The notes under the pieces: generated by a model
Told to the model about the DNA's origin: nothing
The model's database searches: none
Seen by the model: only the letters and a program-made list of their open reading frames with translations
Assembly: GCA_011364905.1 (NCBI GenBank)
Contig: RDNZ01000007.1
Coordinates: 16,394 to 80,393, forward strand
From: Candidatus Thorarchaeota archaeon
GTDB lineage: Archaea > Asgardarchaeota > Thorarchaeia > Thorarchaeales > Thorarchaeaceae
DNA: 64,000 nt
Direction of reading: 5' to 3'
In this document: positions 6,623-52,514 of the stretch, one piece after another
How positions within the stretch are numbered: position 1 is the first letter of the stretch
How the letters are laid out: every line of letters starts with the position of its first letter
Position numbers and translations under genes: made by a program

Positions 6623-7819
6623 TCAATCTTCAGGGAAATAATCCGGTTCAAGGATCTCAGGACTGATAATACCTGCAGAAACAGCTAACAGCTCAGCTAG
6701 ATCAAGGACTCGGACTTCCAAGTCTGCTTCATACATTCCATGTGTGAGGTTCATTTCACATGCAGGGCAAATAGTAGCCATCAGTTCTGCATCAGTCTTA
6801 ACAAAGTCGCGAATGCGTTCGTCTGATACCTTCTGAGAGTGGTCAGGGAACATTATCTTGCACCCGCCGCCACCACCACAACAAAATGCATGTTCACGAT
6901 TTCTGGACATCTCGATGAATTCTACTCCTGGAATCGATTCGATGACCTTACGGGGTGGCTCGTAGATGTCCCTGTACCGCCCAATCTCACAGGGGTCGTG
7001 GTATGTAATTTTCTTTTTCACCGACTGCTTGAGTTTGAGTTTCTCTTCTTTAACAATCTCTTCTAGAACCTCACTTGTATGCCGGACCTTGATTGGGAGT
7101 TTTTCAATTCCAAGGAGCTTAGGATATTCCTCATCAAAGGCCCTGAAGCAACTGGGACAAGGCGTGATAATCTCCTTGACACCGCGATCCTGCAGTTTTT
7201 TGAGGTATGCTTCAGCGTATTTCTTGGAGTGCTCCATCTTTCCAGTAATCCAATAGGGAGTGCCACAACAGGTCTGGTCTTCACCAAGAAAGTCGAGTTC
7301 ATACCCAGCTGCTTGAAGAAGCTGAACAAGAATGTTGGTTTTCTCCTTGAAACGATGACTGGCAAGACATCCGGGAAAGAATAGAGTCCCTGAACCTTTT
7401 TTGAACTCAAGACCTTCTGACCATTTGTTGTGAACTTTTGTGGGGTCAGCGAAGATGTTTCCCGAGGAAGTCACTGTGTCAGCCATATGTGCTCCAGCTT
7501 CTGGGATTTTAATCCCTTGATCGATGAAGTCTTGACGCATCGCTTTAGTGACTTCAATCACATCAATTTGAGCGGCCTTTTTGCACTCTTCTCGACATCG
7601 TCCACACATAAAGCATCCAAATACTCGCTCTGCGAGGTCCTCAGAGTATTCAAGTTTGCCTTCTAGAATTGCTCGTGCTATAGCCATTCGGCCTCTCGCT
7701 GTCGAGGATTCCCAGTATTGGGTGAAAACCTCTGGGCAACGGTCGTTGTAGTCGAAACCGCGACAAAACTCACACCTCCCACAGGCATAGATCATGTCTT
7801 TGTATTCTTCTATCCTCAT
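6623..7819 (-). CDS. Fe-S oxidoreductase (GlcF/HdrD-like, CCG domains)
   Basis: CxxCxxC clusters, CCG, TYHDPC, CCGGGGG. Confidence 0.85.
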   Translation of the reverse strand: MRIEEYKDMIYACGRCEFCRGFDYNDRCPEVFTQYWESSTARGRMAIARAILEGKLEYSEDLAERVFGCFMCGRCREECKKAAQIDVIEVTKAMRQDFIDQGIKIPEAGAHMADTVTSSGNIFADPTKVHNKWSEGLEFKKGSGTLFFPGCLASHRFKEKTNILVQLLQAAGYELDFLGEDQTCCGTPYWITGKMEHSKKYAEAYLKKLQDRGVKEIITPCPSCFRAFDEEYPKLLGIEKLPIKVRHTSEVLEEIVKEEKLKLKQSVKKKITYHDPCEIGRYRDIYEPPRKVIESIPGVEFIEMSRNREHAFCCGGGGGCKIMFPDHSQKVSDERIRDFVKTDAELMATICPACEMNLTHGMYEADLEVRVLDLAELLAVSAGIISPEILEPDYFPED

Positions 7820-9213
7820 CGCAGTTCCTCCTCTGGTATGTAGATTCCTCGTTGCAAGATGTTTTTGGGGTCCAGAGTCTTTTTGAGTGTCTTTAGCAAT
7901 CGATAATACCCAGTATCACGTTCCGCTACGAATCTCCGAAGGCCATCCCGCCCTCCAATCCCGTAAGGAACAACTGGTCCTCGCAATGTGATTTCATCAA
8001 TCTCATCAGCCATTTTTACTAGTTCTTTCCATTCTTCAGGTTCATTGTAATTGGTGACCATAAAGGCAAGCCAGTCCCTCGGGAGGATTTGCCCGCCAAA
8101 CCCAGCTTTCGTGTATCCACGCTTCTCTATGACCTCTTCTCTCCAGATTCTATACAAGAAAGTGATGTCATCAATCCTCAGAGATCCTGAACCAAAGAAG
8201 TGCCAAACACCTGTATTGAACAGGTCTTGAAGTCCAGTAAGAATGCGACCAAAATAGTCATCAGCTGGGGCACGGTCTCCAATCTCGCCGCCTAGTTCTT
8301 GGATTTTCGCAATTACCTTCTTCTTCCTGTGGTCAACAATCTCCCGCTCATAACCAAAAATGTCTATCATCATGAAGAAGACGTCCGGTGCGGAGGGATC
8401 TACCCACAGATAGACCCCTTGCAAAAACTCGTCGCCCACATGTCTATTGATGAAGTGTCCAAACTCGATGACGTCGTTGAGTGTCTTCATTGTAGCTGTA
8501 AATCGCTCAGAAATATCAGTCACAGGACGTATTCGTAATGAGAGTTCAGTACAGACACCAAGAATACCCTCTGCGCCAATGAACATCCCAGCCAAGTCGG
8601 GACCCAGGCATTGGCGCTTGAATTTGCCTGCACTCGGCCATGCAGCAGAACCAGTCTCCACAACATCTCCGTTTGGTAGAACCATTTCTAGGGAGATGAT
8701 GTCCTGGTTCCCATGAAATCCGAACTTAGCAGTTGAGTGTGGTCCACCACCAGCTTTCATGACAGATCCTCCAACTGTCATTGCAGGACCCCCAGCCTCA
8801 CTACAGAGATACGTCAGACCTTGTTTTCGTAGCTCTTGATCCAATTTCGCCCAGGTGCAGCCAGGTTGCACAGAAGCAACAAGATCTCTATCATTGATGT
8901 TTACAATCTTGTTCATCCGTCCTAAATCAAGCATGATTCCAGATTCCTGAGGAAGGTAAGCATCCCAATGAGAAGTTCCGCCTCCGCGAATGTAGACTGG
9001 AACATTCTTCTCATTCGCTATCTTGAGAATCGCTTGAATTTCCTCACGGGTTTCAGGCATTGCAACATGAGTTGGCATCTTTTGTTCTGATGGACTTAAG
9101 TCACGACTATACGGCAGCAAGTCGAAATTTCGATCGGTGACCCGACTTGGACCTACAACATCTTCTAATAGAGAGGTGATTTTTTTGATATCAACCATTG
9201 TGGCACTCTCCAA
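7816..9213 (-). CDS. FAD-binding oxidoreductase (GlcD/VAO family)
   Basis: RGGGTS, GAEGILG, DPKNIL; overlaps the Fe-S partner gene. Confidence 0.85.
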   Translation of the reverse strand: MESATMVDIKKITSLLEDVVGPSRVTDRNFDLLPYSRDLSPSEQKMPTHVAMPETREEIQAILKIANEKNVPVYIRGGGTSHWDAYLPQESGIMLDLGRMNKIVNINDRDLVASVQPGCTWAKLDQELRKQGLTYLCSEAGGPAMTVGGSVMKAGGGPHSTAKFGFHGNQDIISLEMVLPNGDVVETGSAAWPSAGKFKRQCLGPDLAGMFIGAEGILGVCTELSLRIRPVTDISERFTATMKTLNDVIEFGHFINRHVGDEFLQGVYLWVDPSAPDVFFMMIDIFGYEREIVDHRKKKVIAKIQELGGEIGDRAPADDYFGRILTGLQDLFNTGVWHFFGSGSLRIDDITFLYRIWREEVIEKRGYTKAGFGGQILPRDWLAFMVTNYNEPEEWKELVKMADEIDEITLRGPVVPYGIGGRDGLRRFVAERDTGYYRLLKTLKKTLDPKNILQRGIYIPEEELR

Positions 9214-9291: not shown

Positions 9292-10437
9292 ATGCTGAGG
9301 AAAGGAAGCATGAACCCGCGAGAGAGATTCCTTGCAGCTGTCAATCATGAAGAGCCGGACAGAGTGCCGTTGGACTATTGGACAACTCCTCAAGCATACG
9401 AGGGTTTGCGTGACCACATAGGAATTGTATCTCCAGAAACTCAAGAATGGGGAATCATGTCTTCTTGGAAAACATCAGAGGAATTACTCAGACGTCTAAA
9501 TGTGGACTTCAGACGCGTCTACATGAATCCAGCAGCTGATTTTGAACCCAAAATTCTCCCAGATGGTTCCACTGAAACTGAGTTTATGTGTGGAATGAAA
9601 TTGATAGGTGGATACTACGAGGTCACATACTATCCCTGGGCTGAGTTCACCGAGGTTGAACAGGTTGAGGATTTCGAATGGATTGACCCAGATGATCCAT
9701 CTAGAATGGAAGGAGTTCGGGATTGGGCAAAACACCTCCATGAGGAAACAGATTATGCGGTTGTTGGTATGGTTGGCGGTCCTTGGGGAGCTTTCGAGGT
9801 TGTAGCTCATTACATGAGGGGCTTCGACAAGTTTCTCATTGACCTTCTGAGGCATCAAGACCTCGCTGTAGCAATGATGGAAAAGAGCGCTCGGCTCGCT
9901 ATTGAAATGAACAGAGTGTTCTTAGACGAGGTTGGGGAATTTCTGGACATTGTACAAGTCGGTGATGACCTTGGTCATCAAGATGGGCTGTTGATCAGTC
10001 CCAGAATATACAGAAGCATGGTGAAACCAAGACACAAGAGAATCTACAGTGATATCCACAAGAGAGCACCACATGTCAAGATACTTTATCATTCATGTGG
10101 AGCAATCGAGCCAATGATTGAAGATTTGATTGAAGTTGACGTAGATATTCTTAATCCAATTCAACCTCTTGCCAAGGGAATGGACTCATTTGAGCTCAAA
10201 CGCAAATATGGTAATCGACTCACGTTTCATGGCGGAATTGACCTGCAGTTCGCAATGTCCGCGCAGGGATCATTGGACGATTTAAGGAAAGAGATTGACA
10301 CTCGGATCGATGCACTTGCACCTGGTGGAGGATACATCCTAGCTCCAGCACATAATATACAACCAGAGTCTACACCAGAGAAGATTCTCGAACTGTATGA
10401 CTATGCAACGAAGAGAGGCGTATATCCCATAAACTGA
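9292..10437 (+). CDS. Uroporphyrinogen decarboxylase / MtaA-CmuA (MT2) family protein
   Basis: PRER...EPDRVP, GDDLG, HSCG, GGIDLQ, GGGYILAPAH. Confidence 0.85.
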   Translation: MLRKGSMNPRERFLAAVNHEEPDRVPLDYWTTPQAYEGLRDHIGIVSPETQEWGIMSSWKTSEELLRRLNVDFRRVYMNPAADFEPKILPDGSTETEFMCGMKLIGGYYEVTYYPWAEFTEVEQVEDFEWIDPDDPSRMEGVRDWAKHLHEETDYAVVGMVGGPWGAFEVVAHYMRGFDKFLIDLLRHQDLAVAMMEKSARLAIEMNRVFLDEVGEFLDIVQVGDDLGHQDGLLISPRIYRSMVKPRHKRIYSDIHKRAPHVKILYHSCGAIEPMIEDLIEVDVDILNPIQPLAKGMDSFELKRKYGNRLTFHGGIDLQFAMSAQGSLDDLRKEIDTRIDALAPGGGYILAPAHNIQPESTPEKILELYDYATKRGVYPIN

Positions 10438-10438
10438 A

Positions 10439-11113
10439 TCATGGAATTGGTCGGTCTTTGTGAAGATCGTGAGGATCCTCACCCTCATCTAGCTTATCAG
10501 ACCACCACTCATCTGTAGCAACAACCTGTTCCGCATGAGATAGAACTTCTTCTATTTGATGTGCTGGAATAACGACTATTCCGTCACCATCTCCAAAAAT
10601 CAAATCGCCGGGATTGACTGTCACTCCTCCGCACACGATGGGCTTTTGAACGGAATCCATGTCCAGTCTACCTCTCATTGTACCGGGGTGACGCCCTCGC
10701 GCAAAGACTGCAAAATTCATCTTATCAATATCATGAATATCTCTGGAGGTCCCATCAACCACAGCACCTCTGACTCCTTTAGGTATGCCAATCTTAGTCA
10801 GTATCTGACCCCAGGCAGAGCAATCTGTAGCTCCAGCCATGTCTATGACAATCACATCGCCCTCATCTGCGTCTGTTGCTAGGCTCATGAATAAATCCAG
10901 CTGCTTCTCATCATATGGCCGAGTATCTGGAGAGCGTACCAATCTTCCTGTCCGTGCGAAACCAGCTATCCGACTGCACTTCGTTAGAGGCGTGATGCCT
11001 CGATCCATACACACCGCCCCAATTCCTATTTCATCTGCCGCATCAGAGAGAGCTGCAACATACAGCTTCAGTGTTCGTTCTATGATTTCATTCCGAGTTG
11101 CCATTATTGACAT
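10439..11113 (-). CDS. RraA-family / HMG-CHA aldolase-like protein
   Basis: AWGQI, GAVVDGTSRD, GGVTVNPGDLIFGDGDG; ATG at 11113 overlaps the upstream TGA. Confidence 0.85.
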   Translation of the reverse strand: MSIMATRNEIIERTLKLYVAALSDAADEIGIGAVCMDRGITPLTKCSRIAGFARTGRLVRSPDTRPYDEKQLDLFMSLATDADEGDVIVIDMAGATDCSAWGQILTKIGIPKGVRGAVVDGTSRDIHDIDKMNFAVFARGRHPGTMRGRLDMDSVQKPIVCGGVTVNPGDLIFGDGDGIVVIPAHQIEEVLSHAEQVVATDEWWSDKLDEGEDPHDLHKDRPIP

Positions 11114-11595
11114 CACTCCTTCTCCCAGCGATATATGCAATGGTCATCCCCACGCATCATGCATTTGGGAATAGACAGGGTTACGTTGAAGTCGACAGCT
11201 TGTCCAATTCCTTCATCAATCTTTGTTACGTACTCGCAAATATCCGGCCCAGCACCTTTGGCTTTGAATGACTCAATCCAAGGGCATGATGTCACCTTTA
11301 GCTCAAAGCACTTCTCACTCTCAGTTTCAATAGAGAGTTCGAATCCGAAGTATGGATGCGCTGCATCAAAAAAATCGAAAATAGAGTGTAGGTCTCCACT
11401 CCTCAGTGATCCTTGCTTGATAGCAGCCCTTCCGAGTTCGAAACCATGGTGCCGATTCACTTCACTGATAGCATCCAATCCCTTTTTGCCCATTAGCTTT
11501 CGTATTACTTCAACATAGATTGCATGGGTATCAGCTAGTGTATGCATATTGGTTCTTCGAACATCATCCGCGCCTGGATTAGACATTGCCAACAT
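11113..11595 (-). CDS. L-2-amino-thiazoline-4-carboxylate hydrolase-like / V4R-like protein
   Basis: VTSCP...IC...D...MMRGDDHCIY Cys pattern; start adjusted from the ORF track. Confidence 0.7.
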   Translation of the reverse strand: MLAMSNPGADDVRRTNMHTLADTHAIYVEVIRKLMGKKGLDAISEVNRHHGFELGRAAIKQGSLRSGDLHSIFDFFDAAHPYFGFELSIETESEKCFELKVTSCPWIESFKAKGAGPDICEYVTKIDEGIGQAVDFNVTLSIPKCMMRGDDHCIYRWEKE

Positions 11596-11729
11596 TTTCC
11601 ATTGAACTTTGAACTTGGGATTACTAAGGTATCTTAAATCTCCTCTGAGTTGGCTACTACGGTTTGTTAAATTAATATAGTCCATTCGATAGGTTATATA
11701 AACTAGGAAATTCTCTGCGACTACAAAAG

Positions 11730-12899
11730 GTGCTGCCTATGCTTGCTGAGAGAAATATCGATGTTCCTGCTAGTGAGATTAGAAAGGTCTACAATAATAT
11801 CATTGGGAGAACCGACGTTTTCGACATGACTGTTGGGATACCCGATTATGACACTCCTCAGCATATCAAAGATGCAGCAAAGAGAGCCATCGACGAAGGA
11901 TATACGACGTATACTCACAATGCAGGGTATATTGAGGTCAGGGAGGCACTCGCTGAAAAACTCAAGCGGGACAACAATATAACAGCAGACCCAGCTACAG
12001 AACTGATTTGTACAGCAGGCGGCATGGGAGCTCTTGTTCTCGCAAACCTAGTTATGATTGATCCTGGGGACGAGGTCATCTATCCAGATCCTGGCTTTGT
12101 AAGTCATTATGCACACATAAAACTCGCTGGTGGCATTCCAGTCCCAGTCCAACTAAAAAAAGAGAATGATTTCGGTATAACTGCAGAAGATGTTGCAAAC
12201 CTCATAACACCAAAAACAAAAATGATTGTGCTAAACTCACCTAACAATCCAACAGGGGGAGTTATACCCAATAAAGAATTGAAGCAAATTGCGGAGCTTT
12301 GCATTGAGAACGACATCTATGTGATTGCTGATGAGGCATATGAAAAATTCAGGTACATAAATGAAGAACCCCAATTTATTGGCTCATTTGAGGGGATGAA
12401 AGAACGAACAGTCTCTATATTCTCTTTCTCTAAGACCTATGCAATGACCGGGTGGCGGATAGCTGTTGCCACAGGCTCCAGTGAACTAATTGGTGCAATG
12501 ACTAAACTGCAAGAACACATTATTGCAATGCCTACTTCCATTGCGCAAAAGGCTGCAGAGGCGGCAGCAATAGGACCTCAGGACTGTGTCAACGAGATGC
12601 TCAATACATTTCGAAAACGAAGGGAGATAATCACAAAGGGACTAAGCGAAATTGAAGGAATTGAGTTGCATCCTCCAGGTGGGGCGTTTTATGTGTTTCC
12701 AGATGTATCAGCTTATGGAGTCAAATCGTACGATTTGGTATACAAGATTTTGAATGCGACAAATGTAGCGACACTTCATGGTTCAGCCTTTGGAAAATAC
12801 GGAGAGGGATTCCTGAGGTTGTGCTATGCTGTTTCAACAGAGAGAATCAATGAAGCTCTGAGCAGACTTGATGCCTATCTGCCAAAACTATTGCACTGA
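11730..12899 (+). CDS. PLP-dependent aminotransferase class I/II
   Basis: NSPNNPTG, DEAY, SFSKTYAMTGWR. Confidence 0.9.
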   Translation: MLPMLAERNIDVPASEIRKVYNNIIGRTDVFDMTVGIPDYDTPQHIKDAAKRAIDEGYTTYTHNAGYIEVREALAEKLKRDNNITADPATELICTAGGMGALVLANLVMIDPGDEVIYPDPGFVSHYAHIKLAGGIPVPVQLKKENDFGITAEDVANLITPKTKMIVLNSPNNPTGGVIPNKELKQIAELCIENDIYVIADEAYEKFRYINEEPQFIGSFEGMKERTVSIFSFSKTYAMTGWRIAVATGSSELIGAMTKLQEHIIAMPTSIAQKAAEAAAIGPQDCVNEMLNTFRKRREIITKGLSEIEGIELHPPGGAFYVFPDVSAYGVKSYDLVYKILNATNVATLHGSAFGKYGEGFLRLCYAVSTERINEALSRLDAYLPKLLH

Positions 12900-12948
12900 T
12901 AGTACTAGATGCGAAAAGTAATGTATGGAAAAAGCTGTGGGATGAGGG

Positions 12949-15261
12949 ATGACATCTCGGAGTAAGCGTCTCAAACAGCAAATGCTCGAGTCAGAACCAA
13001 CCATTTCATCAGAACGAGCGGTTCTATTTACAGAGTATATGAAGGAGCATTGGTCAGATTCAACAATTCTCCGAAATGCTGGTGCTTTTGCTTATGTACT
13101 TGATAACATGACTATCCGGATTGAACCAGAGGAACTCATCGTTGGAAACATGGGGCCAACTCCTCGTTCTTGTCAGGTATTTCCAGAGTATAGCTGGAAG
13201 TGGATTGAGGATGAATTAGATCGGTTCGCCAAGAGAAGAACCGAGAAGTTCATGATAAGTGAGGAGGACAAGCAGAACCTCCGCGAAGTCTTCAAGTTCT
13301 GGAGGGGAAAAAGCACAGCAGAACTGGCAGGATTTGCGATGCCAGCAGAATCAATAAAGGCTTCAAAAGCGGGTCTCTTTACGATTGGTGCTCCAGGGAC
13401 TGGTATTGGCCATGTCATTGTCGATTACAACGAAGTCTTACACAAAGGGCTCCTTAGGATCCTGAATGAGTTGAACGGGAGAGAGGGAGACTACTTCGAA
13501 GCGGTTCGCATTGAGATTGAAGCGGTAGTGAGATTCTCTGAACGCTTCTACCATCTTGCCGCAGAGATGGCTACGAAAGAGGTTGATAAAGAACGAAAGG
13601 CAGAACTATTGGAAATCGCACGAATTTGTAAGAAAGTTCCTGCTGAACCCGCTGGAACATTCTACGAGGCACTCCAGTCATTCTGGTTCATCCACTTACT
13701 GATACAGACTGAATCAAATGGTCATTCAATCTCCACAGGTAGGTTTGACCAGTACATGTTTCCATTCTACGAAACAGACCTCAAGAGCGGCAAACTTGAT
13801 GAAACAGGAGCTATTGAACTCCTTGAGGTACTCTGGGTAAAGTTATCATCTCTAATCAAAATAAGAAACGAATACTATAGTGTGGCCTTTGCGGGTCATC
13901 CCATGTTTCAAAACCTCACCATTGGCGGTCAGCATGCGAATGGACAAGATGCAACAAATAGCTTAACGAAAGCAATCCTTCAAGCTACAGCGAACATAAG
14001 GGTTACACAACCAAGTGTTTCATTTCGATGGCACAAGAAAACTCCTGAAGACATCAAATTGCAGGTTGTCGATGTGATCTCGAAAGGCCTCGGTATGCCA
14101 GGTCTCTTCAACGATAATGCAATAATCCCTATGATGATTGAGAAGGGGACTGATCACTCAGAGGCGCATGATTACTCCATTTTGGGATGCGTTGAGCCAA
14201 TCATAGGTGGAAAGTCTGACCCAAGACAGAACATAGGATATGTCAATCTGCCAAAGATTCTCGAAGTGACACTGAACAACGGAAGGGACCCAAAGACAAG
14301 TGAATTGATTGGCAGGGAAACTGGAGATCCTAGAAGTTTCAAGTCGTTTGATGAATTATGGTTAGCATTTGAAGAACAGACTGACTATACTATTGAGCTG
14401 CTGACGCAGGCAGATAGGGAAGCTGCTAGAGTCCTGGCCAAAAACACGCCGACACCATTTATCTCATCGCTTTTGCAACGATGCAACGAATCGGGCAAGA
14501 CATTACAAGAAGGAGGAGCAATCTATAGCTCTGGTGGAATCATGGGTGTTGGAGTGGCAATTGTGGCTGACTCACTCGAGGCTCTCAGGAAATACGTATT
14601 CGAAAACCGAGAAGTCGCGATGGATGAGATGCTTCAAGTCCTTGCTAAGAACTATGAAGGCTATGAGGAACTCAGAGTCAGGTTAGAGAATGACTCCGAA
14701 AAGTATGGTAATGACATTGAACGAGTAGATCTTCTTGCTAGGAACACTGGCAGGATATTTTGTAATTCAGTTCAGAATCGAATGACGACGAGAAACACTC
14801 CTTATCATGCTGCTTTGTTCTCAGTGTCTATGTATATTCCGCAGGGGGAGGTACTTGGAGCCACACCAGATGGAAGAAAGGCGGGGTATATGATATCTGA
14901 TGGTGTTTCACCCACTCAAAACAGAGATGTCAATGGACCTACTGCAGCCATGAAATCTGTGGCCAGGTTAGATCACTCTCTGTGTTACAATGGCACGCTC
15001 TACAATATGAAGTTCACACCGGATTTCTTTGAGAATGAGTCAAAGAGAAAGAAGTTCATTGGCATGGTTGATGCGTACTTCGCAATGGGCGGATTTCATG
15101 TCCAGTTCAATGTGGTTTCACGAGAAATCCTTGAAGATGCGAAAGTAAATCCGCTGCAGCATAGAGACCTAATAGTAAGAGTTGCTGGATATAGTGCTTA
15201 TTTCATCGAATTGGACCCGTTCGTTCAGGATGAGGTCATTGCTCGAACGGAATTCTCCTAA
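12949..15261 (+). CDS. Glycyl radical enzyme, eliminase (diol dehydratase/PFL2-like) class
   Basis: Single-Cys GCVEP loop, C-terminal RVAGY glycyl motif, GRFDQY, ATPDGRKAG. Confidence 0.9.
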   Translation: MTSRSKRLKQQMLESEPTISSERAVLFTEYMKEHWSDSTILRNAGAFAYVLDNMTIRIEPEELIVGNMGPTPRSCQVFPEYSWKWIEDELDRFAKRRTEKFMISEEDKQNLREVFKFWRGKSTAELAGFAMPAESIKASKAGLFTIGAPGTGIGHVIVDYNEVLHKGLLRILNELNGREGDYFEAVRIEIEAVVRFSERFYHLAAEMATKEVDKERKAELLEIARICKKVPAEPAGTFYEALQSFWFIHLLIQTESNGHSISTGRFDQYMFPFYETDLKSGKLDETGAIELLEVLWVKLSSLIKIRNEYYSVAFAGHPMFQNLTIGGQHANGQDATNSLTKAILQATANIRVTQPSVSFRWHKKTPEDIKLQVVDVISKGLGMPGLFNDNAIIPMMIEKGTDHSEAHDYSILGCVEPIIGGKSDPRQNIGYVNLPKILEVTLNNGRDPKTSELIGRETGDPRSFKSFDELWLAFEEQTDYTIELLTQADREAARVLAKNTPTPFISSLLQRCNESGKTLQEGGAIYSSGGIMGVGVAIVADSLEALRKYVFENREVAMDEMLQVLAKNYEGYEELRVRLENDSEKYGNDIERVDLLARNTGRIFCNSVQNRMTTRNTPYHAALFSVSMYIPQGEVLGATPDGRKAGYMISDGVSPTQNRDVNGPTAAMKSVARLDHSLCYNGTLYNMKFTPDFFENESKRKKFIGMVDAYFAMGGFHVQFNVVSREILEDAKVNPLQHRDLIVRVAGYSAYFIELDPFVQDEVIARTEFS

Positions 15262-15328
15262 ATAAGCAGCACCAACGGCAGATTTAACATTTCCAAAAGA
15301 ATCTGAGCACCCGTCAAACTACTTTGAG

Positions 15329-16333
15329 TTGTCAAAAATGAGTTATGATGTGGTTACCTTTGGTGAAGTAATGCTAAGGCTCTCTCCTCCCAACTTCAAG
15401 AGATTCGAGCAAACTGAGAGCTTCGATGCGCATGCTGGAGGAGCAGAGATGAATGTCGCAGTGGCGTGCACTCGGTTAGGATTGACGTCTGCCTATATCA
15501 CAAAACTAGGTGACAATTCTATTGGACATTTCATCCGGAACAAAGCGAGAGAACATGGAGTGGACACTTCACATATACTCTGGGACCCTGATAGTCGGTG
15601 CGGCGTCTATTTTGTGGAGTTTGGAGCAGCTCCCCGAACCAACCGTGTGATCTATGACCGAAAAGATTCTGCAATAAGCAAGATTAAACCGGGGGAAGTT
15701 GATTGGAAGAAGATTCTGAAAGGGACCAAGCTTTTTCATACAAGTGGAATCACCCCTGCTTTAAGCGCAAGCTGTGCAGCAGCAACAGAAGAGGCTCTTA
15801 AGATCGCTAAAGAGCAAGGAGCCAAAGTCTCATACGATGTGAACTACAGAGGAAAACTGTGGACACCAAAAGATGCTCAAAAGTTCACCGAACCAGCATC
15901 AGAGTTCATTGACATTCTAATAACAACAGAGGAGGACACAAAGGTTGTCTATGGCATTGAAGGAAAGGACTACGAGGAAGTTGCGGCCAAACTCACTGAT
16001 AAGTTTGGATTCGAGATTGTAGTCATCACACTCCGAGAGACCCCATCAGTTTGGTTCAATAAGTGGTCAGTCTTTGCTTATTCAAATGGGAAGGTCTATA
16101 GAAGTCCGGTTTATGACGTGGAGATAGTTGATCGGCTTGGTGGGGGAGATTCTTGTAGCGCTGGATTCATCTATGGCTACCTTGAGCTAAAAAACCTACA
16201 GAAAGCAGTCGACTTTGGCTCAGCATTCTCTGCGCTAAAGCACTCAGTTCCTGGAGACCTTGCATTTGTAAACAAATCAGAGGTTGAAGAACTGACAAAG
16301 GGACGCCAACGCGGATTCCGTATTGAAAGGTGA
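15329..16333 (+). CDS. kdgK: 2-keto-3-deoxygluconate kinase (PfkB family)
   Basis: TFGEVMLRLSPP, GGAEMNVA, SGITPALS, DVNYRGKLW, DRLGGGDS. Confidence 0.85.
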   Translation: MSKMSYDVVTFGEVMLRLSPPNFKRFEQTESFDAHAGGAEMNVAVACTRLGLTSAYITKLGDNSIGHFIRNKAREHGVDTSHILWDPDSRCGVYFVEFGAAPRTNRVIYDRKDSAISKIKPGEVDWKKILKGTKLFHTSGITPALSASCAAATEEALKIAKEQGAKVSYDVNYRGKLWTPKDAQKFTEPASEFIDILITTEEDTKVVYGIEGKDYEEVAAKLTDKFGFEIVVITLRETPSVWFNKWSVFAYSNGKVYRSPVYDVEIVDRLGGGDSCSAGFIYGYLELKNLQKAVDFGSAFSALKHSVPGDLAFVNKSEVEELTKGRQRGFRIER

Positions 16334-16989
16334 AAGGCATGTGGACAAAGGAAAAAGCAATGAAATTAATCTATGACACAGCTCTGATTCCAATTATTCG
16401 TGTTGAGTCGGCGGATATTGCTTTCAAAGTGGCGGATGCATTTTTGCAGGGAGGCGTTCCCATCATAGAAGTGACCATGAGCGTTCCAGGCGCTGTCGAG
16501 GTTGTGCAACAACTTGTAGAGAAGTTTGGTAATAAGGTCCTGATAGGTTCAGGGACTGTTGTTAGCGGGAAAATGGCTGAGGAAGTCATCAAAGCTGGAA
16601 GTGAGTTCATTGTGAGCCCTAATTATTCTCGTGATTTGATTGAGACTGCAATGAAACATGACAAGCCAATTATACCAGGAGCCCTCACGCCCACTGAGAT
16701 CTATGATGCATACACAATGGGGGCAGATGCGGTCAAAGTATTCCCGTGTGGTATGGTGGGGGGTGCGGATTATCTGAAAGCCATAAGAGGGCCACTGCCC
16801 CACATCCCGCTCGTCCCAACTGGTGGCGTAGAACTAGAAACTGCAGGGTCCATGCTTGAGGCAGGAGCATATGCGCTTGGTGTTGGTGGAGCAATCACTG
16901 ACAAAAAAGCCATCAAGGAAGGCCGGTATGAAGTAATTACTGAGAATGTTAGTAAATTTCTTGAGATTGTAAAGGACTACAGGAGGTAA
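16330..16989 (+). CDS. eda: KDPG/KHG aldolase
   Basis: IEVT, GSGTV, FIVSP, PGALTPTE, VKVFP, PTGGV. Confidence 0.9.
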   Translation: MKGMWTKEKAMKLIYDTALIPIIRVESADIAFKVADAFLQGGVPIIEVTMSVPGAVEVVQQLVEKFGNKVLIGSGTVVSGKMAEEVIKAGSEFIVSPNYSRDLIETAMKHDKPIIPGALTPTEIYDAYTMGADAVKVFPCGMVGGADYLKAIRGPLPHIPLVPTGGVELETAGSMLEAGAYALGVGGAITDKKAIKEGRYEVITENVSKFLEIVKDYRR

Positions 16990-17036: not shown

Positions 17037-17309
17037 ATGATTGAGGGATATTATAAAGAAAGACTGACTAAAGTGATTCAAAAGAAAACGTTTGGTCAGC
17101 TTGAGAGGTTTGCGCTAGACAGTGCTGGAAACACAAAGGTATACAAGCTAAGAGAAGTATTGCAGACATTTGATCCGGTTCATCTAACCATGTACATGGT
17201 AGGTGTTTGTGGAAGAAAGATTAAGGTGAAACTCAATACTTTCGATTTCCCTGATGGCGAACGTAGGGTAGGAATTGAGTTCATTGAGGTTCTTAAATGG
17301 GATGAATAG
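17037..17309 (+). CDS. Small hypothetical protein
   Basis: 90-aa ATG-started ORF downstream of eda. Confidence 0.5.
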   Translation: MIEGYYKERLTKVIQKKTFGQLERFALDSAGNTKVYKLREVLQTFDPVHLTMYMVGVCGRKIKVKLNTFDFPDGERRVGIEFIEVLKWDE

Positions 17310-17433
17310 AGAATCCTCAGAACAGTAGCAGAGCAGCAAGATATACAGCCAGAACGATCAATCAATATGAACCTTTAAGAGATATAACTAAATCCAGCGC
17401 TAAATCTGTACATTCTCATAGGAGCACTTAGAG

Positions 17434-17760
17434 ATGACTCAGGACCTACTAGAACTTATGCAAGAACGAATCACAATCGGATTAGAAAGAGAGAAGACCC
17501 ATGAAGCGATACAAGGGTGGGAACGCACAGTCCAACTTACACTGAAGGAAGGACCACAGTACCACTTCATTGTCAAAGACAACAATATCACAGTTCACGA
17601 GGGACCTATCGATGATCCAGATATGAGGATCCAGAGTGATGAGGACACGATTCGGAAACTGTTTCTTGAAGAGATGAGCGCAAGCTCAGCCATCTTTAAA
17701 CGCAAGTTGAAAGTGAAAGGATCGACTTCTGATCTCATGAAGATAAGACACATTTTCTAG
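17434..17760 (+). CDS. SCP2 sterol/lipid-binding domain protein
   Basis: DPDMRIQSD...SAIFKRKLKVKG SCP2 pattern. Confidence 0.8.
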   Translation: MTQDLLELMQERITIGLEREKTHEAIQGWERTVQLTLKEGPQYHFIVKDNNITVHEGPIDDPDMRIQSDEDTIRKLFLEEMSASSAIFKRKLKVKGSTSDLMKIRHIF

Positions 17761-17778
17761 GTCATAGGGGGAAAGCGA

Positions 17779-19191
17779 GTGGCAATTGACAAGAAGATTG
17801 CAAAGGAATTTGAAAATGCAGTCGGGGCCGAATATGTATCAACAAGACCTGATGTTCTACTAACATATTCACAGACTGCGTCCATGGCAGTCGAGCCTGT
17901 TATTCCATCTGCGGTTATTCGTCCAGCAAATGCGAAAGAGGTATCTCAGATACTAAAGTTGGCAAACAAGCATAGGATACCTGTGACTCCTCGGTCGGGA
18001 GGATCTAGTCTTCAAGGAGAAGCCATCCCAAAACCGGGAGGAATTGTTGTCGACCTTTTGAGACTGGGTGGCATCACTCTTTACGAAAATCTCCGTTCCG
18101 TAACAGTTGGAGCAGGGGTCACTTATGGAGAACTAGACAAATTTCTAGCTAAGCATGGTCTCTTCCTCCCAGTTTATCCAGAGTCTTCTTTGGTCTGTAC
18201 TGTTGCGGGTAATGTGGCCGTGAATGGAGCGGGTGTTGGTTCTAGTCTATATGGGTGCACTGGCGAGATGGTTCTCGGACTAGAAGTAGTTCTCCCTGAT
18301 GGCACTATCATACAGACCGGTTCGGAAGCAAATCCAAATTCGCCAGGGCCATTCATCCGATATGCCTTTGGTCCAGATCTGACAGGTTTGTTCATTGGCT
18401 CACTTGGTAGTTTTGGAATTATTACAAAGGTATCAGTGAAGACATTCAAACGGATGAAGTACTTTGACTATAACATGTACGGATTTGATACTGTTGAACT
18501 TGCGGAGCAGTTCCTCATTGAAATTAAACAGAACGACATCAACGGTCTCTTCACCTCTATCTACTCAGGAGAAGTCCTTGACTTATTCATGGACATGCTC
18601 TCGGAGGAACTTGGGTTCCCACCATTTGAGCATGCAGAGCGCACTGTATCAATGACAATAGGTCGCGTACGTGAAGACATGCTAGAGAGTGACGCTAAAC
18701 TTGCACGCGAGATATGTGAGAGATTGGGAGGGAGAGTACTGAATGTCCGAGAAATGCCACAGCAAGAATGGGAGGGGCGCTTTTGGAACTTCGTTCGAGC
18801 CTCGTACATACACGGATGGCATTGGAGGACACTTTACCATCATCAGACTCCAACGAACTCGCACAAATCAGTAGACATCATAATGGATGCAATGGACAAA
18901 TACAGGTTTCTTGGTCATACAGCTGGCTTTCAATCAGGACATAGCAGTATGAACCTCTATCCTCACCTCTACTTCGACCCGCAAGACAAAGATGAAGAAG
19001 AAAAGGTTGTAAAGGCCCACCAAGAAATAGCGAAAGCCTTGTTCAAATCGGGAGCAGTTCCCTTCAAGCTTGCTGAGTTTTGGAAGGATGCGATTGAGGA
19101 CATGGATGAGTACATGGACTTTCTCAAACATATAAAGAACTCAATTGACCCGAACAACATAATGAATCCGGGAGTGCTTGGAGGGATCTAA
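17779..19191 (+). CDS. FAD-binding oxidoreductase (GlcD/AGPS-like)
   Basis: PRSGGSSL, GSLGSFGIIT, DPNNIMNPG. Confidence 0.85.
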   Translation: MAIDKKIAKEFENAVGAEYVSTRPDVLLTYSQTASMAVEPVIPSAVIRPANAKEVSQILKLANKHRIPVTPRSGGSSLQGEAIPKPGGIVVDLLRLGGITLYENLRSVTVGAGVTYGELDKFLAKHGLFLPVYPESSLVCTVAGNVAVNGAGVGSSLYGCTGEMVLGLEVVLPDGTIIQTGSEANPNSPGPFIRYAFGPDLTGLFIGSLGSFGIITKVSVKTFKRMKYFDYNMYGFDTVELAEQFLIEIKQNDINGLFTSIYSGEVLDLFMDMLSEELGFPPFEHAERTVSMTIGRVREDMLESDAKLAREICERLGGRVLNVREMPQQEWEGRFWNFVRASYIHGWHWRTLYHHQTPTNSHKSVDIIMDAMDKYRFLGHTAGFQSGHSSMNLYPHLYFDPQDKDEEEKVVKAHQEIAKALFKSGAVPFKLAEFWKDAIEDMDEYMDFLKHIKNSIDPNNIMNPGVLGGI

Positions 19192-19194
19192 TCA

Positions 19195-20355
19195 ATGGCA
19201 GAGATAGATCTTGACGAACTCATAGAGAACTTACTTCAATGTCGTAGGTGCGGCATCTGCCGCAATGCGGTCTATGAGGAAAGAGGATTTGATGGAGTTT
19301 GTCCGGTCTGGAAGAACTCCCCTGGGTTTGAAACCAGTTTTATGCGTGGCCGGATTCAGGTTGCTTTAGCACTCTTGGAAGGAGTTCTTGAAAAGACTCC
19401 AGAGAATTCTGAAGCGCTTTTTTCATGTACCCTCTGTGGAAACTGCACCGAAATCTGTGCCGCAGAGTTCAATCCTGCGGATTGCCTTGAGGAAGTCAGA
19501 GCAGTCCTGAATGATATTCCTAATGATGTTCGTGATGCAATAGCAGAGAAGATAATCCAGTTTGATAACCCCTATGAGAAAAACAGGAGTCTTAAACGCG
19601 AGTGGATTAAGGAGGTAGGTTTTGAGATTCCAACCTCTGGTGAAGTCCTCTACTTCACTGGATGTACTGCAGGGATGAAGCTTCCAACTGTCGTCATATC
19701 GGCAGCAAGAATACTCAAAGCCGCAAATATTGAGTTCGCGGTCCTTGAAGAGGAACCATGCTGCGGTAGCGTCATGTTGCGAACAGGAAAAACAGATGAG
19801 GCCCGTCTTAATGCACAGAGGGTAGTAAGCGCAATTCAAAAGTCTGGAGCGAAAAAAGTCATTGTTACTTGCGCAGGATGTTTAAAGACCCTTCGAGAGG
19901 ATTTTCCGAAGTTGGGACTCGAGATTCCCGAAGTCCTGCACATAACCGAGATCTTACAGGAAACTGCGGCGTGTAAGAAGCTGAAGCTCAAACCGGTGAC
20001 AAAAAGACTCAAGGTGACATATCACGATCCCTGTCACCTATCTAGAGCTATGGGAGTTTATGATGCGCCAAGAGAAGTAATCATGTCAATACCCAACATT
20101 GAGTTTGTCGAAATGGAAACAAGTAGAGAAACTGCAATGTGCTGCGGAGCTGGAGGGGGTCTTCGTTCATATGATCCTGAGCTTGCAAAGAAGATTGCCG
20201 CAGACAGAGTGATGAGTGCTCATGAAGTTGGGGCGGAGATAATAGCTACTGCGTGTCCGTTCTGCGAGAGCAATCTAAGGTTGGGAGCTGAGCAAATAAA
20301 CAGCTCAATTCGGGTTGCAGATATTGTGGACTTAATAGCTGAGCGCCTGATGTAA
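19195..20355 (+). CDS. Fe-S oxidoreductase (GlcF-like, CCG domains)
   Basis: CRRCGIC, CTLCGNC, CCG, TYHDPC, CCGAGGG. Confidence 0.85.
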   Translation: MAEIDLDELIENLLQCRRCGICRNAVYEERGFDGVCPVWKNSPGFETSFMRGRIQVALALLEGVLEKTPENSEALFSCTLCGNCTEICAAEFNPADCLEEVRAVLNDIPNDVRDAIAEKIIQFDNPYEKNRSLKREWIKEVGFEIPTSGEVLYFTGCTAGMKLPTVVISAARILKAANIEFAVLEEEPCCGSVMLRTGKTDEARLNAQRVVSAIQKSGAKKVIVTCAGCLKTLREDFPKLGLEIPEVLHITEILQETAACKKLKLKPVTKRLKVTYHDPCHLSRAMGVYDAPREVIMSIPNIEFVEMETSRETAMCCGAGGGLRSYDPELAKKIAADRVMSAHEVGAEIIATACPFCESNLRLGAEQINSSIRVADIVDLIAERLM

Positions 20356-32243: not shown

Positions 32244-32840
32244 ATGGCTCAGAGCAATGACACCACAGCTGCTGCATCCGACGACGGATTTGAAGGATAC
32301 AAGTTTAGAATAGTTTTGTTAGGAGAGGCAGCCGTAGGCAAAACATCGCTCGTGAGGAGATACACTGAGAATGTCTTTGATGAGGAGTATAAGCAGACCA
32401 TCGGAACAACATTCGCAACAAAAGATATCGATGTGACCGATGGTGAGGGCAACGTTCGGACAGTTCGTTTGAATATATGGGACATGGGCGGACAATCAAC
32501 CTATAGAGAACTCCGCAGGCAGTTCATGAAAGGAGCCTCTGGGGCGGTAATCGTCTACGATGTAACCCGTCCGGAAACTTTCATGGCAATGAACAATTGG
32601 TTTGAGTCATTCAAAGAGGTGTGCCCAGATTCGCCGGTTATCATTAGCGCAAACAAAGTGGATCTATCAGAGAACAGGATGGTCCCTCAAGAACCCGGAA
32701 TGATGCTGCGTGATTGGTTTCAGGCAGAGTATTTTGAGACTTCGGCGAAGACTGGCGACAAGGTAAACAATGTATTTACACGAGTTGCAGAGGTTGTTCT
32801 GGAGAAGGCACTATCTGAGAGCAAGAGTCCTTTGATGTGA
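32244..32840 (+). CDS. Rab-like small GTPase
   Basis: GEAAVGKTS, TIG, WDMGGQ, NKVD, ETSAK. Confidence 0.9.
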   Translation: MAQSNDTTAAASDDGFEGYKFRIVLLGEAAVGKTSLVRRYTENVFDEEYKQTIGTTFATKDIDVTDGEGNVRTVRLNIWDMGGQSTYRELRRQFMKGASGAVIVYDVTRPETFMAMNNWFESFKEVCPDSPVIISANKVDLSENRMVPQEPGMMLRDWFQAEYFETSAKTGDKVNNVFTRVAEVVLEKALSESKSPLM

Positions 32841-34159: not shown

Positions 34160-34759
34160 ATGTCGATGGATGATGCTAGTCACATGTTTAAGCTGGTTGC
34201 GCTGGGAAATGGCGCTGTTGGCAAGACTAGCTGTATTAAGAGGTACACGGAAGATAGTTTCAGCGAGCGGTACATTGCAACAATTGGCACCACATTCGCC
34301 CTGAAGACTGTGAATACTGTTTTGCCAAGTGGAAGTACTGTAACTGCACGAGTTGTTCTTTGGGATCTTGCAGGGCAGCCCACATACAACGAACTGCGAC
34401 GCAGGTACATGGCTGGCGCATCAATGGCAATCATTGTATATGATGTAACACGGCCTCAAACGTTCTTGGATATAGGTGAATGGTTCACCAAGTTTATCAC
34501 TGTGTGTCCCAATGCTGTGGTCGCGGTCGTAGCCAATAAGATAGATCGTGAGGACAGACTTGTTCCTCCAGAAGCAGGCAAGATGGTCACCCAGTGGTTG
34601 GATGTAGTACATTACGAAACTTCAGCCAAGACCGGAGAGAATGTCAACATTCTCTTCACAGAATTGGTGCAGAAAGCAATTGCCAAACAAGCAGAAACTG
34701 GTCCACTTGATTCAACATCAGGGGATCAACCACCAAAACCATTCAAGCTAGGAGTCTGA
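34160..34759 (+). CDS. Rab-like small GTPase
   Basis: GNGAVGKTS, TIG, WDLAGQ, NKID, ETSAK. Confidence 0.9.
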   Translation: MSMDDASHMFKLVALGNGAVGKTSCIKRYTEDSFSERYIATIGTTFALKTVNTVLPSGSTVTARVVLWDLAGQPTYNELRRRYMAGASMAIIVYDVTRPQTFLDIGEWFTKFITVCPNAVVAVVANKIDREDRLVPPEAGKMVTQWLDVVHYETSAKTGENVNILFTELVQKAIAKQAETGPLDSTSGDQPPKPFKLGV

Positions 34760-51887: not shown

Positions 51888-52514
51888 ATGGCTCCTGATG
51901 ACCAGACTCAACAATTAATCGACTATTTTTCAAATATGGCGCTACAGGAATTAACGAATCAGTTCGAAGACCGTGGTTCAGCGATGCACAAGCTCTTCGT
52001 GCGGCAATTCAAGATTCACTACAACAACTATGAGCAGATGATGCCAAATCCGCTCGCAAAGAGACATGGAATCAACTCATTATTCGTGATGGCAATGGAC
52101 GATGTGATGTGCGAGGTCAGAGCATCATTCTCAGAACTCAAAGACATTGTGGTTTCAATATACCGTGCAATGCTTCAAGATTACTTCAAGAGAGAAGTTG
52201 AGAAACTTGAGGCTTCCAGCGATCCATGGCACGCCTTTGTTGAGTGGACTCGTCAAGGGAATGAAACCAACAACAACAATGAATACTTCCAAGTCAAAGA
52301 GGTTGAAACACAAGAGGGGTGCTTTGGATTCGATATTCAGAGATGTCTCTATTTTGAAATCCTCAGAGAAGCTGGAAAACCAGAGCTAGGGCCAATACTT
52401 TGCAAATATGATAGTCTCCTAGCTGAAGCCGTACAGAATTGGATCGGATTTACAAGACACGAAACAATAGCGCGTGGAGATAAGTGTTGCACATTCAGAT
52501 ACTGCAAAAAATAG
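51888..52514 (+). CDS. L-2-amino-thiazoline-4-carboxylate hydrolase-like protein
   Basis: FDIQRCLY...PELGPILCKYD...TIARGDKCCTFRY. Confidence 0.8.
   Translation: MAPDDQTQQLIDYFSNMALQELTNQFEDRGSAMHKLFVRQFKIHYNNYEQMMPNPLAKRHGINSLFVMAMDDVMCEVRASFSELKDIVVSIYRAMLQDYFKREVEKLEASSDPWHAFVEWTRQGNETNNNNEYFQVKEVETQEGCFGFDIQRCLYFEILREAGKPELGPILCKYDSLLAEAVQNWIGFTRHETIARGDKCCTFRYCKK

Follow-up and report, generated by a model that had tools for sequence, protein, structure and literature searches.

A glycyl radical eliminase encoded with KdgK and Eda in Thorarchaeota: a possible radical entry to 2-keto-3-deoxy acid metabolism

A glycyl radical enzyme gene in a KdgK-Eda cluster

What does a glycyl radical enzyme (GRE) contribute to a gene cluster whose kinase and aldolase are expected to consume 2-keto-3-deoxy sugar acids? 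This question is raised by a 64,000-nucleotide (nt) stretch of the genome of an uncultured Candidatus Thorarchaeota archaeon (contig RDNZ01000007.1, assembly GCA_011364905.1; "the window" below, to which all coordinates refer), in which a GRE gene, GRE1, lies between genes for a class-I aminotransferase (AT) and for the 2-keto-3-deoxygluconate (KDG)-type kinase KdgK and the aldolase Eda. The step before KdgK and Eda, from a 2,3-dihydroxy acid to a 2-keto-3-deoxy acid, is carried out by IlvD/Edd-type, enolase-superfamily, or UxuA/UxaA dehydratases, whose folds and mechanisms are unrelated to those of GRE1 (Fe-S or Mg/Mn acid-base chemistry, no radical). An initial annotation of the locus had proposed that GRE1 dehydrates or deaminates a sugar acid or amino-sugar acid to KDG. 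We find that GRE1 belongs to an archaeal clade that is real, conserved, isolated, and functionally tied to KdgK and Eda. The best single reading of its role, as judged from sequence comparisons, is that of a radical 2,3-dihydroxy-acid dehydratase feeding these two enzymes, and we put it forward tentatively, at rather less than even confidence.

Open reading frame (ORF) and family scans placed the four genes of the cluster (11730 to 16989) on the + strand. As the initial annotation had described, they are co-oriented with gaps of less than 70 nt: 49 nt after the AT gene, 67 nt after GRE1, and a 4-nt overlap between kdgK and eda.

11730..12899, + strand: class-I/II pyridoxal phosphate-dependent aminotransferase (AT), 389 amino acids (aa); PF00155, 252 bits; alternative ATG at 11740
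12949..15261, + strand: GRE1, GRE of the 1,2-eliminase type, 770 aa; PF02901 and PF01228; TIGR01774, 736 bits against a cut-off of 678
15329..16333, + strand: KdgK, 2-keto-3-deoxygluconate-type PfkB kinase, 334 aa; PF00294; alternative ATG at 15338
16330..16989, + strand: Eda, 2-keto-3-deoxy-6-phosphogluconate/2-keto-4-hydroxyglutarate (KDPG/KHG) aldolase, 219 aa; PF01081, 154 bits; 4-nt overlap with kdgK

Eda passes the TIGR01182 cut-off (186.8 bits against 156.05) and is the sole PF01081 gene in the host genome. Among curated kinase models, KdgK scored 388 bits against NF041633, 313 against NF041332 (KDG/2-keto-3-deoxygalactonate [KDGal] kinase; cut-off, 440), and 189 against NF040938 (cut-off, 400), and its best solved relatives are all KDG kinases (Thermotoga maritima 2afb at 291 bits, followed by 1v19 and 1wye).

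GRE1 has the sequence of an intact 1,2-eliminase

By its sequence, GRE1 is an intact glycyl radical 1,2-eliminase that is closest to glycerol and propanediol dehydratases. It matches both domains of the pyruvate formate-lyase (PFL)-like superfamily (PF02901, 682 bits; PF01228, 113 bits), and all elements of the radical machinery are in place. The glycine-radical motif RVAGYSAYF occupies residues 744 to 752, and Gly747 is found in 37 of the 38 clade members that we aligned as full length, the remaining sequence being truncated. The motifs GIGH (152 to 155), SNGHS (256 to 260), and GCVEP with its single Cys (413 to 417), which the initial annotation had listed, are all present in the translation. 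Cys414 and Glu416, the Cys-x-Glu (CXE) pair of 1,2-eliminases, are kept in 38 of 38 members, as is His155, which aligns with the general-acid His164 of glycerol dehydratase. This histidine, together with Cys433 and Glu435 of the same enzyme, is confirmed in the text of a 2026 superfamily review (PMC13450708).

The top solved matches to GRE1 are all diol dehydratases: the Clostridium butyricum glycerol dehydratase (PDB 1R8W/1R9D; 681 bits over GRE1 residues 2 to 768, with the same fold, Cys-x-Glu, NGHS, and Gly motif), the Roseburia inulinivorans propanediol dehydratase (5I2A; 629 bits), and 9RCO, a GRM3 propanediol dehydratase (612 bits; PMC12756279). The only cut-off that GRE1 reached was that of the broad TIGR01774 subfamily. 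It fell below every NCBIfam equivalog cut-off, including those for HpfG (590 bits against 1000), HpsG (540 against 1000), HypD (584 against 1100), PflD (NF007437; 584 against 1109), and CutC (551 against 1050). Together with the specificity positions described below, which differ from those of glycerol and propanediol dehydratases, these scores upheld the expectation that GRE1 would group with no characterized GRE. It is also not a pyruvate formate-lyase, having a single Cys in GCVEP in place of the Cys-Cys pair and a TIGR01255 score of 151 bits against a cut-off of 994.

A succinate synthase would be a quite different kind of GRE. The source record of one GRE1 orthologue (P0015) gives it the name "Benzylsuccinate synthase alpha subunit," and passages of PMC8163825 assign Hermodarchaeota and Thorarchaeota GREs to the alkyl- and benzylsuccinate synthases (Ass/Bss) on the basis of 29 to 33% identity and a single Cys. 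We consider it almost certainly wrong that GRE1 is such an enzyme. The published assignment rests on low identity and on a single Cys that is common to all non-PFL GREs, whereas GRE1 is far closer to the eliminases: the solved X-succinate synthases (XSS) MasD and TutD scored 301 and 287 bits against 681 for glycerol dehydratase, and GRE1 retains both the CXE Glu and the His of eliminases (the NCBIfam output contained no dedicated BssA model). Its neighbors are sugar-acid genes, and no XSS-like small subunit, fumarate-addition, or beta-oxidation gene was annotated between 5295 and 24295.

GRE1 represents an isolated Thorarchaeota clade

In contigs from one genome per species, we found 41 loci of the Thorarchaeota type, with GREs 66 to 85% identical to GRE1, and the next locus was bacterial, at 41%. 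The labels of these loci include one Hermodarchaeota and some Promethearchaeota, and the closest public loci are Thorarchaeota metagenome-assembled genomes. Among protein clusters at 90% identity, the best 120 were all at least 70% identical to GRE1, and those carrying an organism label were all Asgard (Thorarchaeota, Promethearchaeota, Sifarchaeia, Odinarchaeota, and Hermodarchaeota). When 1.84 billion 50%-cluster representatives were searched exhaustively, the whole clade collapsed to one representative (72% identity), with the next relative at 42 to 44%; when the nearest 48 representatives were tested, one reached an equivalog cut-off, that of CutC. Across 201 sampled Asgard genomes, we found orthologues of GRE1 (at least 66% identity) in the family of the window alone (31 of 43 genomes); the genomes sampled from 26 further Asgard families yielded none. 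On sequence grounds, GRE1 is thus a member of an isolated, Thorarchaeota-restricted, and uncharacterized 1,2-eliminase clade.

According to section 7 of the superfamily review, all PFL-like GREs of characterized function are bacterial and the archaeal clades are a clear gap (PMC13450708). The same section describes one structurally characterized archaeal PFL-like GRE, Archaeoglobus fulgidus PFL2 (PDB 2F3O), the function of which is debated. PFL2 scored only 421 bits and therefore lies in a different clade from GRE1.

GRE1 is linked to KdgK and Eda across its clade

The linkage to kdgK and eda that the initial annotation had pointed to is conserved. We searched the 41 Thorarchaeota-type loci by tblastn, counting only those with enough flanking sequence to be evaluated, and found KdgK and Eda directly after GRE1 in 33 of 35 loci and the AT gene directly upstream of it in 31 of 33. 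KdgK is the most conserved gene of the cluster (orthologues 73 to 92% identical across loci), and the adjacency holds down to 66% protein identity although the flanking genes change. None of the 34 non-Thorarchaeota loci has a KdgK or Eda match. In the synteny exceptions (L005, L006, and L038), GRE1 adjoins genes for a 2-oxoacid:ferredoxin oxidoreductase and a thermosome.

Presence across genomes follows the same pattern. GRE1 and Eda (PF01081) occur in the same 31 of 43 family genomes, and 12 genomes have neither; four of these 12 (G191, G158, G164, and G173) had GRE matches of unlisted identity, and in G164 the cluster may be unassembled, since its AT orthologue sits on a short contig. In genome G027, a 1147-aa multi-PAS histidine-kinase-type gene (L089:9772-13215) is inserted between GRE1 and kdgK, and the gene order survives. 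In genome G055 (97% complete), AT, KdgK, and Eda stay together and GRE1 has moved elsewhere; its GRE1 (L038:8001-10346) contains three in-frame stops (one TGA and two TAG) and its KdgK (L090:4046-5035) contains two, with no frameshift in either gene. These stops could mark early pseudogenes or recoding. GRE1, KdgK, and Eda are thus inherited and lost together, and in this one genome they decay together.

Such a pattern might arise if gene order were simply inherited within one family, the substrate of GRE1 having no relation to KdgK and Eda. It would then be expected that other genes are carried along, and the whole 18-kb neighborhood (UROD-like, RraA-like, SSB, and INO1 genes) is indeed also syntenic in many loci, which come from related genomes and include two with GRE1 elsewhere. 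We regard this explanation as very unlikely, given that the adjacency outlasts the turnover of the flanks, that GRE1, Eda, and KdgK are lost and decay jointly, and that KdgK and Eda have no other evident supplier in the host genome.

A second pairing of a GRE with Eda was found outside the family of the window, in the Asgard family f9, where a GPH-type transporter gene is followed by those for Eda, an activase, and the GRE. The GRE of this set (GRE3) is 31% identical to GRE1. The order is present in 4 of the 10 genomes having matches to both the f9 GRE and Eda, and the four come from two genera. At locus L091 (G177:C23:8000-24000), the transporter (GPH/MFS_2), Eda, the radical-SAM activase, and the GRE (837 aa; an unusual GCVDM loop and a KVGGYS glycine motif) are all encoded on one strand between positions 3942 and 9938, and G083, G174, and G071 show this adjacency as well. 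The pocket of GRE3 shows no convergence with that of GRE1, having the GCVDM loop and no Arg in the column of GRE1 residue 426. The f9 case shows that a GRE-Eda pairing is not unique to the GRE1 clade and has no bearing on the substrate.

The substrate pocket and a proposed radical dehydration

We compared pocket residues by alignment to the solved C. butyricum glycerol dehydratase, with conservation scored across the 38 clade members. In the numbering of that enzyme, GRE1 differs at Y336 (H), Y339 (F), W445 (R), H446 (Q), D447 (N), Y640 (F), and S642 (V). Tyr339, Tyr640, Ser642, and Asp447, which we take to be glycerol-binding residues, correspond to F320, F624, V626, and N428 of GRE1; on the roles of Asp447 and Trp445 we found nothing in the literature passages searched. 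The initial annotation had compared GRE1 with glycerol dehydratase. Its EGWHD-to-DPRQN change is real (TEGWHD in the solved chain, SDPRQN in GRE1), as is the His of its GYPMF-to-GHPMF change, but the solved chain reads GYPMY, so that the substitution is GYPMY to GHPMF. Its suggestion that the new His and Arg could bind an anion holds for only one of the two residues as a clade signature: Arg426 is present in 38 of 38 members, and His317 is not conserved (H in 28, F in 10). Asn428 is found in 37 of 38, 24 members have Q and 14 have P at position 427, and R426, F320, F624, V626, Y619, H620, and Y431 are invariant.

Among 151 aligned 50%-cluster representatives, 24 have Arg in the 426 column and 10 have the Arg/Asn pair, and none of the tested representatives with either feature reaches an equivalog cut-off. 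Arg-bearing bacterial relatives have neighbors that give no more than a hint of anionic or sugar substrates: in L042, genes for a regulator of the GntR/FCD type, an MFS transporter, and an acyl-CoA synthetase; in L043, a TRAP transporter gene; and in L064, genes for LacI, an FGGY kinase, and a 2-oxoacid dehydrogenase complex.

The change from Trp-x-Asp to Arg-x-Asn would remove one negative charge and add a positive one beside the site of hydrogen abstraction, the putative position of a carboxylate. In the reaction that we propose, modeled on the direct-elimination scheme for glycerol dehydratase (PMC13450708 section 5.6), Arg426 and Asn428, in place of the Trp and Asp of diol dehydratases, would hold the carboxylate of a 2,3-dihydroxy carboxylic (sugar) acid while the thiyl radical takes the hydrogen atom from C2. 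Glu416 would deprotonate the 2-OH and His155 would protonate the departing 3-OH, and the resulting alpha-keto radical would recover a hydrogen atom to give a 2-keto-3-deoxy acid of the KDG or KDGal type. KdgK would phosphorylate this product, and Eda would split it to pyruvate and glyceraldehyde-3-phosphate.

The diol dehydratases that lead the structural matches offer another role, in which GRE1 would act on a small C3 diol (1,2-propanediol, glycerol, 2,3-dihydroxypropane-1-sulfonate [DHPS], or a similar compound) and dispose of a by-product of an aldolase pathway, not make the aldolase substrate. Such a role suits the pocket: besides the three best scores, F320 and V626 are propanediol dehydratase residues (Phe and Val in both 5I2A and 9RCO), the best NCBIfam equivalog is the DHPS dehydratase HpfG, and clusters that join an aldolase to a diol dehydratase are known, GRM5 being one example (PMC5311937). 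We nevertheless judge this role unlikely. The three solved diol dehydratases keep the Trp and Asp that are Arg and Asn in the GRE1 clade; where the propanediol dehydratases have Trp-His-Asp and a Tyr, GRE1 has Arg426, Gln or Pro at 427, Asn428, and Phe624. Genes for aldehyde dehydrogenases or reductases, shell proteins, and activases are missing from the surroundings of GRE1 in the 41 loci, and the cluster itself likewise lacks any for an aldehyde or alcohol dehydrogenase, a microcompartment, or an activase. Glycerol dehydratase, in contrast to the archaeal GRE1 with its KdgK-Eda neighbors, has an adjacent activase and 1,3-propanediol dehydrogenase, and propanediol dehydratases have microcompartment, aldehyde dehydrogenase, and activase neighbors. 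HpfG, the anion-bearing analogue of the glycerol dehydratase reaction, matches GRE1 at little more than half of its cut-off, and the aldehyde-handling partners HpfH, HpfD, and HpfX of its clusters (PMC11489063) are all absent from the GRE1 locus. In addition, the product expected from Eda after KdgK is glyceraldehyde-3-phosphate and not a free diol, and disposal of a diol does not fit the joint loss of GRE1 with KdgK and Eda.

GRE1 might instead be an isomerase of the YbiW/PflD kind that opens an anhydro-sugar acid, such as 3,6-anhydrogalactonate derived from red-algal galactans, to a 2-keto-3-deoxy acid for KdgK and Eda. The chemistry would be analogous to that of the anhydroglycolysis enzymes YbiW and PflD, which share the CXE motif with GRE1 and whose sugar-derived products are passed to a downstream aldolase (PMC13450708 section 5.7), and here too a kinase and an aldolase follow directly. 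We hold this to be highly improbable. PflD and YbiW scored 489 to 506 bits, lower than the diol dehydratases; their substrates are sugar phosphates supplied by phosphotransferase systems or by kinases upstream of the GRE, whereas the kinase at the GRE1 locus follows it; and no other anhydro-sugar pathway gene was seen, no search aimed at such genes having been made.

Sources of 2-keto-3-deoxy acids and the weighing of the proposed dehydratase

As the initial annotation had noted, family scans detected no IlvD/Edd-, enolase-, or UxuA-type gene in the window. The host genome as assembled (80.8% complete) also lacks PF00920, PF03786, PF04295, PF02614, PF08450, and PF04962, that is, IlvD/Edd, UxuA, UxaA-type, UxaC, SGL lactonase, and KduI genes, and its sole enolase-superfamily trace is a weak MR_MLE_C match (38 bits) in a 434-aa ORF.

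Several results weigh against radical dehydration of a sugar acid by GRE1. The host genome is 80.8% complete. Of 61 family genomes, 14 have a strong MR_MLE_C gene (among them 5 of the 9 relatives in the same genus) and 5 have an IlvD/EDD gene, so the lack of another dehydratase is not general across the family. The cluster has no transporter, dehydrogenase, or lactonase gene that would supply a sugar acid, and the host genome has no SGL lactonase. All of the linkage evidence comes from related genomes of one archaeal family, the members of which are not independent, and loci L005 and L006 have an intact GRE1 with no KdgK-Eda beside it. In the pocket, His317 is not conserved, and F320, F624, and V626 give the tail region a greater hydrophobicity than that of glycerol dehydratase, close to that of propanediol dehydratase; judged from the aligned residues, such a setting would suit a small or apolar tail more than it would a polyol. 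It is mainly these three residues, which argue for a tail less polar than that of a hexonate, that hold our confidence in the proposed dehydratase below even.

The two MR_MLE genes that we inspected (G149 and G087) match muconate-cycloisomerase and Ala-Glu-epimerase models best. They are generic and below every equivalog cut-off and thus are not clear sugar-acid dehydratases; one of them sits two genes from a PepQ-like dipeptidase gene. Nor do MR_MLE genes follow the cluster, since G176 and G204 have them without it. Separately, the MR_MLE_C genes of three same-genus genomes contain one in-frame TAG each (G108:C43:16271-16894, G137:C409:11576-12202, and G120:C119:41231-41860).

A hydrophobic pocket with a carboxylate site would also fit 2,3-dihydroxyisovalerate, and for this reason we considered GRE1 as a substitute for dihydroxy-acid dehydratase (DHAD). 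We rejected this as its main role on the distribution of ketol-acid reductoisomerase (KARI; PF01450), which the host lacks and only 10 of 61 family genomes have, compared with 31 of 43 for GRE1. We also observed that IlvD/EDD (5 genomes) and KARI (10 genomes) never occur together in the 61 sampled genomes of this family (f1), and from this lack of co-occurrence neither looks like part of a complete branched-chain pathway.

If radical dehydration by GRE1 is correct, Asgard archaea would have an oxygen-sensitive "radical Entner-Doudoroff" entry, and the view that Asgard GREs are succinate synthases that activate hydrocarbons would need correction, with consequences for claims about Asgard carbon metabolism (PMC8163825). 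Sections 5.6 and 5.7 of the superfamily review include no GRE with a sugar acid as substrate or a 2-keto-3-deoxy acid as product (PMC13450708), and in a limited literature collection we found no publication describing the AT-GRE1-KdgK-Eda cluster or a KDG-forming GRE. GRE1 may then be the first archaeal PFL-like GRE of assignable function, a radical sugar-acid dehydratase or anhydro-sugar-acid isomerase that replaces the IlvD/Edd, enolase, and UxuA types and is activated in trans by an activase that several GREs share, although we judge this combined proposal somewhat more apt to fail than to hold. For the clade as a whole, KdgK and Eda provide a concrete partner pair that is usable as a coupled assay.

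The aminotransferase probably acts on a product of the pathway

The best solved relatives of AT are the Pyrococcus aspartate/aromatic aminotransferases 1gd9 and 1dju (311 bits), and it reaches no NCBIfam equivalog cut-off. Its orthologues follow the cluster, yet in genome G167 an orthologue (64% identity) persists although GRE1, KdgK, and Eda are absent from its surroundings. The deamination role raised in the initial annotation is not indicated by an AT that resembles an ordinary aspartate/aromatic aminotransferase and stands alone in one relative. Since we found no chemically sensible route by which a transaminase would help to form KDG, we read AT as probably acting on the 2-oxo-acid product (pyruvate to alanine) and not on the sugar acid.

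AT would be more central if it acted with GRE1 on a hydroxy amino acid or hydroxy 2-oxo acid, with Eda serving as a KHG-type aldolase that yields pyruvate and glyoxylate or an aldehyde and with the downstream GlcD-like/Fe-S pair oxidizing glycolate or lactate. Several features are consistent with such a pathway: the position of AT directly upstream of GRE1 in 31 of 33 loci, its persistence beside KdgK and Eda where GRE1 has moved (G055), the bifunctional KHG/KDPG nature of the Eda models, the co-oriented GlcD-like and CCG genes downstream, and the existence of GREs that act on hydroxyprolines (PMC13450708 sections 5.6 and 5.7). It leaves no role, however, for the kinase, the most conserved gene of the cluster, and the general character of AT, its solitary occurrence in G167, and a HypD score of 584 bits against a cut-off of 1100 also speak against it. 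We therefore consider it quite unlikely, and the dehydratase feeding KdgK and Eda remains our preferred reading.

Activation of GRE1 would occur in trans

The host genome encodes two GREs and one detected activase (TIGR02494, 317 bits against a cut-off of 174), which lies on contig G000:C43 directly after the second GRE gene. No activase was found within about 8 kb of GRE1 in any of the 41 Thorarchaeota-type loci; in 28 of the 34 other loci, there is a near-full-length activase match beside the GRE. Since the cluster has no activase and the sole one adjoins the second GRE, GRE1 would be activated in trans by this distant enzyme. At least one activase is present in 53 of 61 family genomes, mostly exactly one, and none was found in G055 (97% complete). 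The second host GRE (L088:9616-13031 on contig G000:C43) has 813 aa, a GCLEN Cys loop, and scores below every equivalog cut-off; its nearest relative, at 54%, is in the Heimdallarchaeota locus L062.

Neighboring genes and other features of the window

Two further features adjoin the cluster.

11694..11702, + strand: candidate TATA-box-like element TTATATAAA of the archaeal type, identified by eye about 30 nt 5' of the AT start
17037..20355, + strand: orf90, SCP2-domain protein, GlcD-like FAD oxidase, and CCG/Fe-S subunit genes, downstream on the same strand; the last two form a D-lactate/glycolate dehydrogenase-like pair

The entire intergenic space between AT and the divergent gene is 44 nt, and a GAGG-like ribosome-binding motif can be read by eye 5 nt ahead of the GRE1 ATG. 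The downstream genes from orf90 to CCG may extend the operon. They are retained in closer relatives only: the SCP2 gene follows Eda in 22 loci and was not found there in L029 to L031, L034, L036, L039, and L041. Pairs of GlcD-like FAD oxidase and CCG/Fe-S genes flank the cluster on both sides (6623 to 9213 on the - strand and 17434 to 20355 on the + strand), and the FAD oxidase gene is tandemly duplicated in relatives L009, L012, L014, L023, and L027. Positions 9292 to 11685 hold a conserved divergent set encoding a URO-D/MtaA-like methyltransferase, an RraA-like (HMG/CHA aldolase family) protein, and an ATC_hydrolase-like protein, and another ATC_hydrolase-like gene is located at 51888 to 52514.

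In one mangrove metatranscriptome run, three contigs are 100% identical to parts of GRE1 (14322 to 14495 and 14850 to 15022) and kdgK (15523 to 15701); this is weak evidence of transcription, as three short contigs from one run reveal neither strand, level, nor a shared transcript and could derive from DNA carry-over. The gene content of the window is of the Asgard type, with Ras-family GTPases, RadA, topoisomerase VI, eRF1, and an archaeal PheRS. Two Ras/Roc-family small GTPase genes, typical Asgard eukaryotic signature proteins, are found at 32244 to 32840 and 34160 to 34759.

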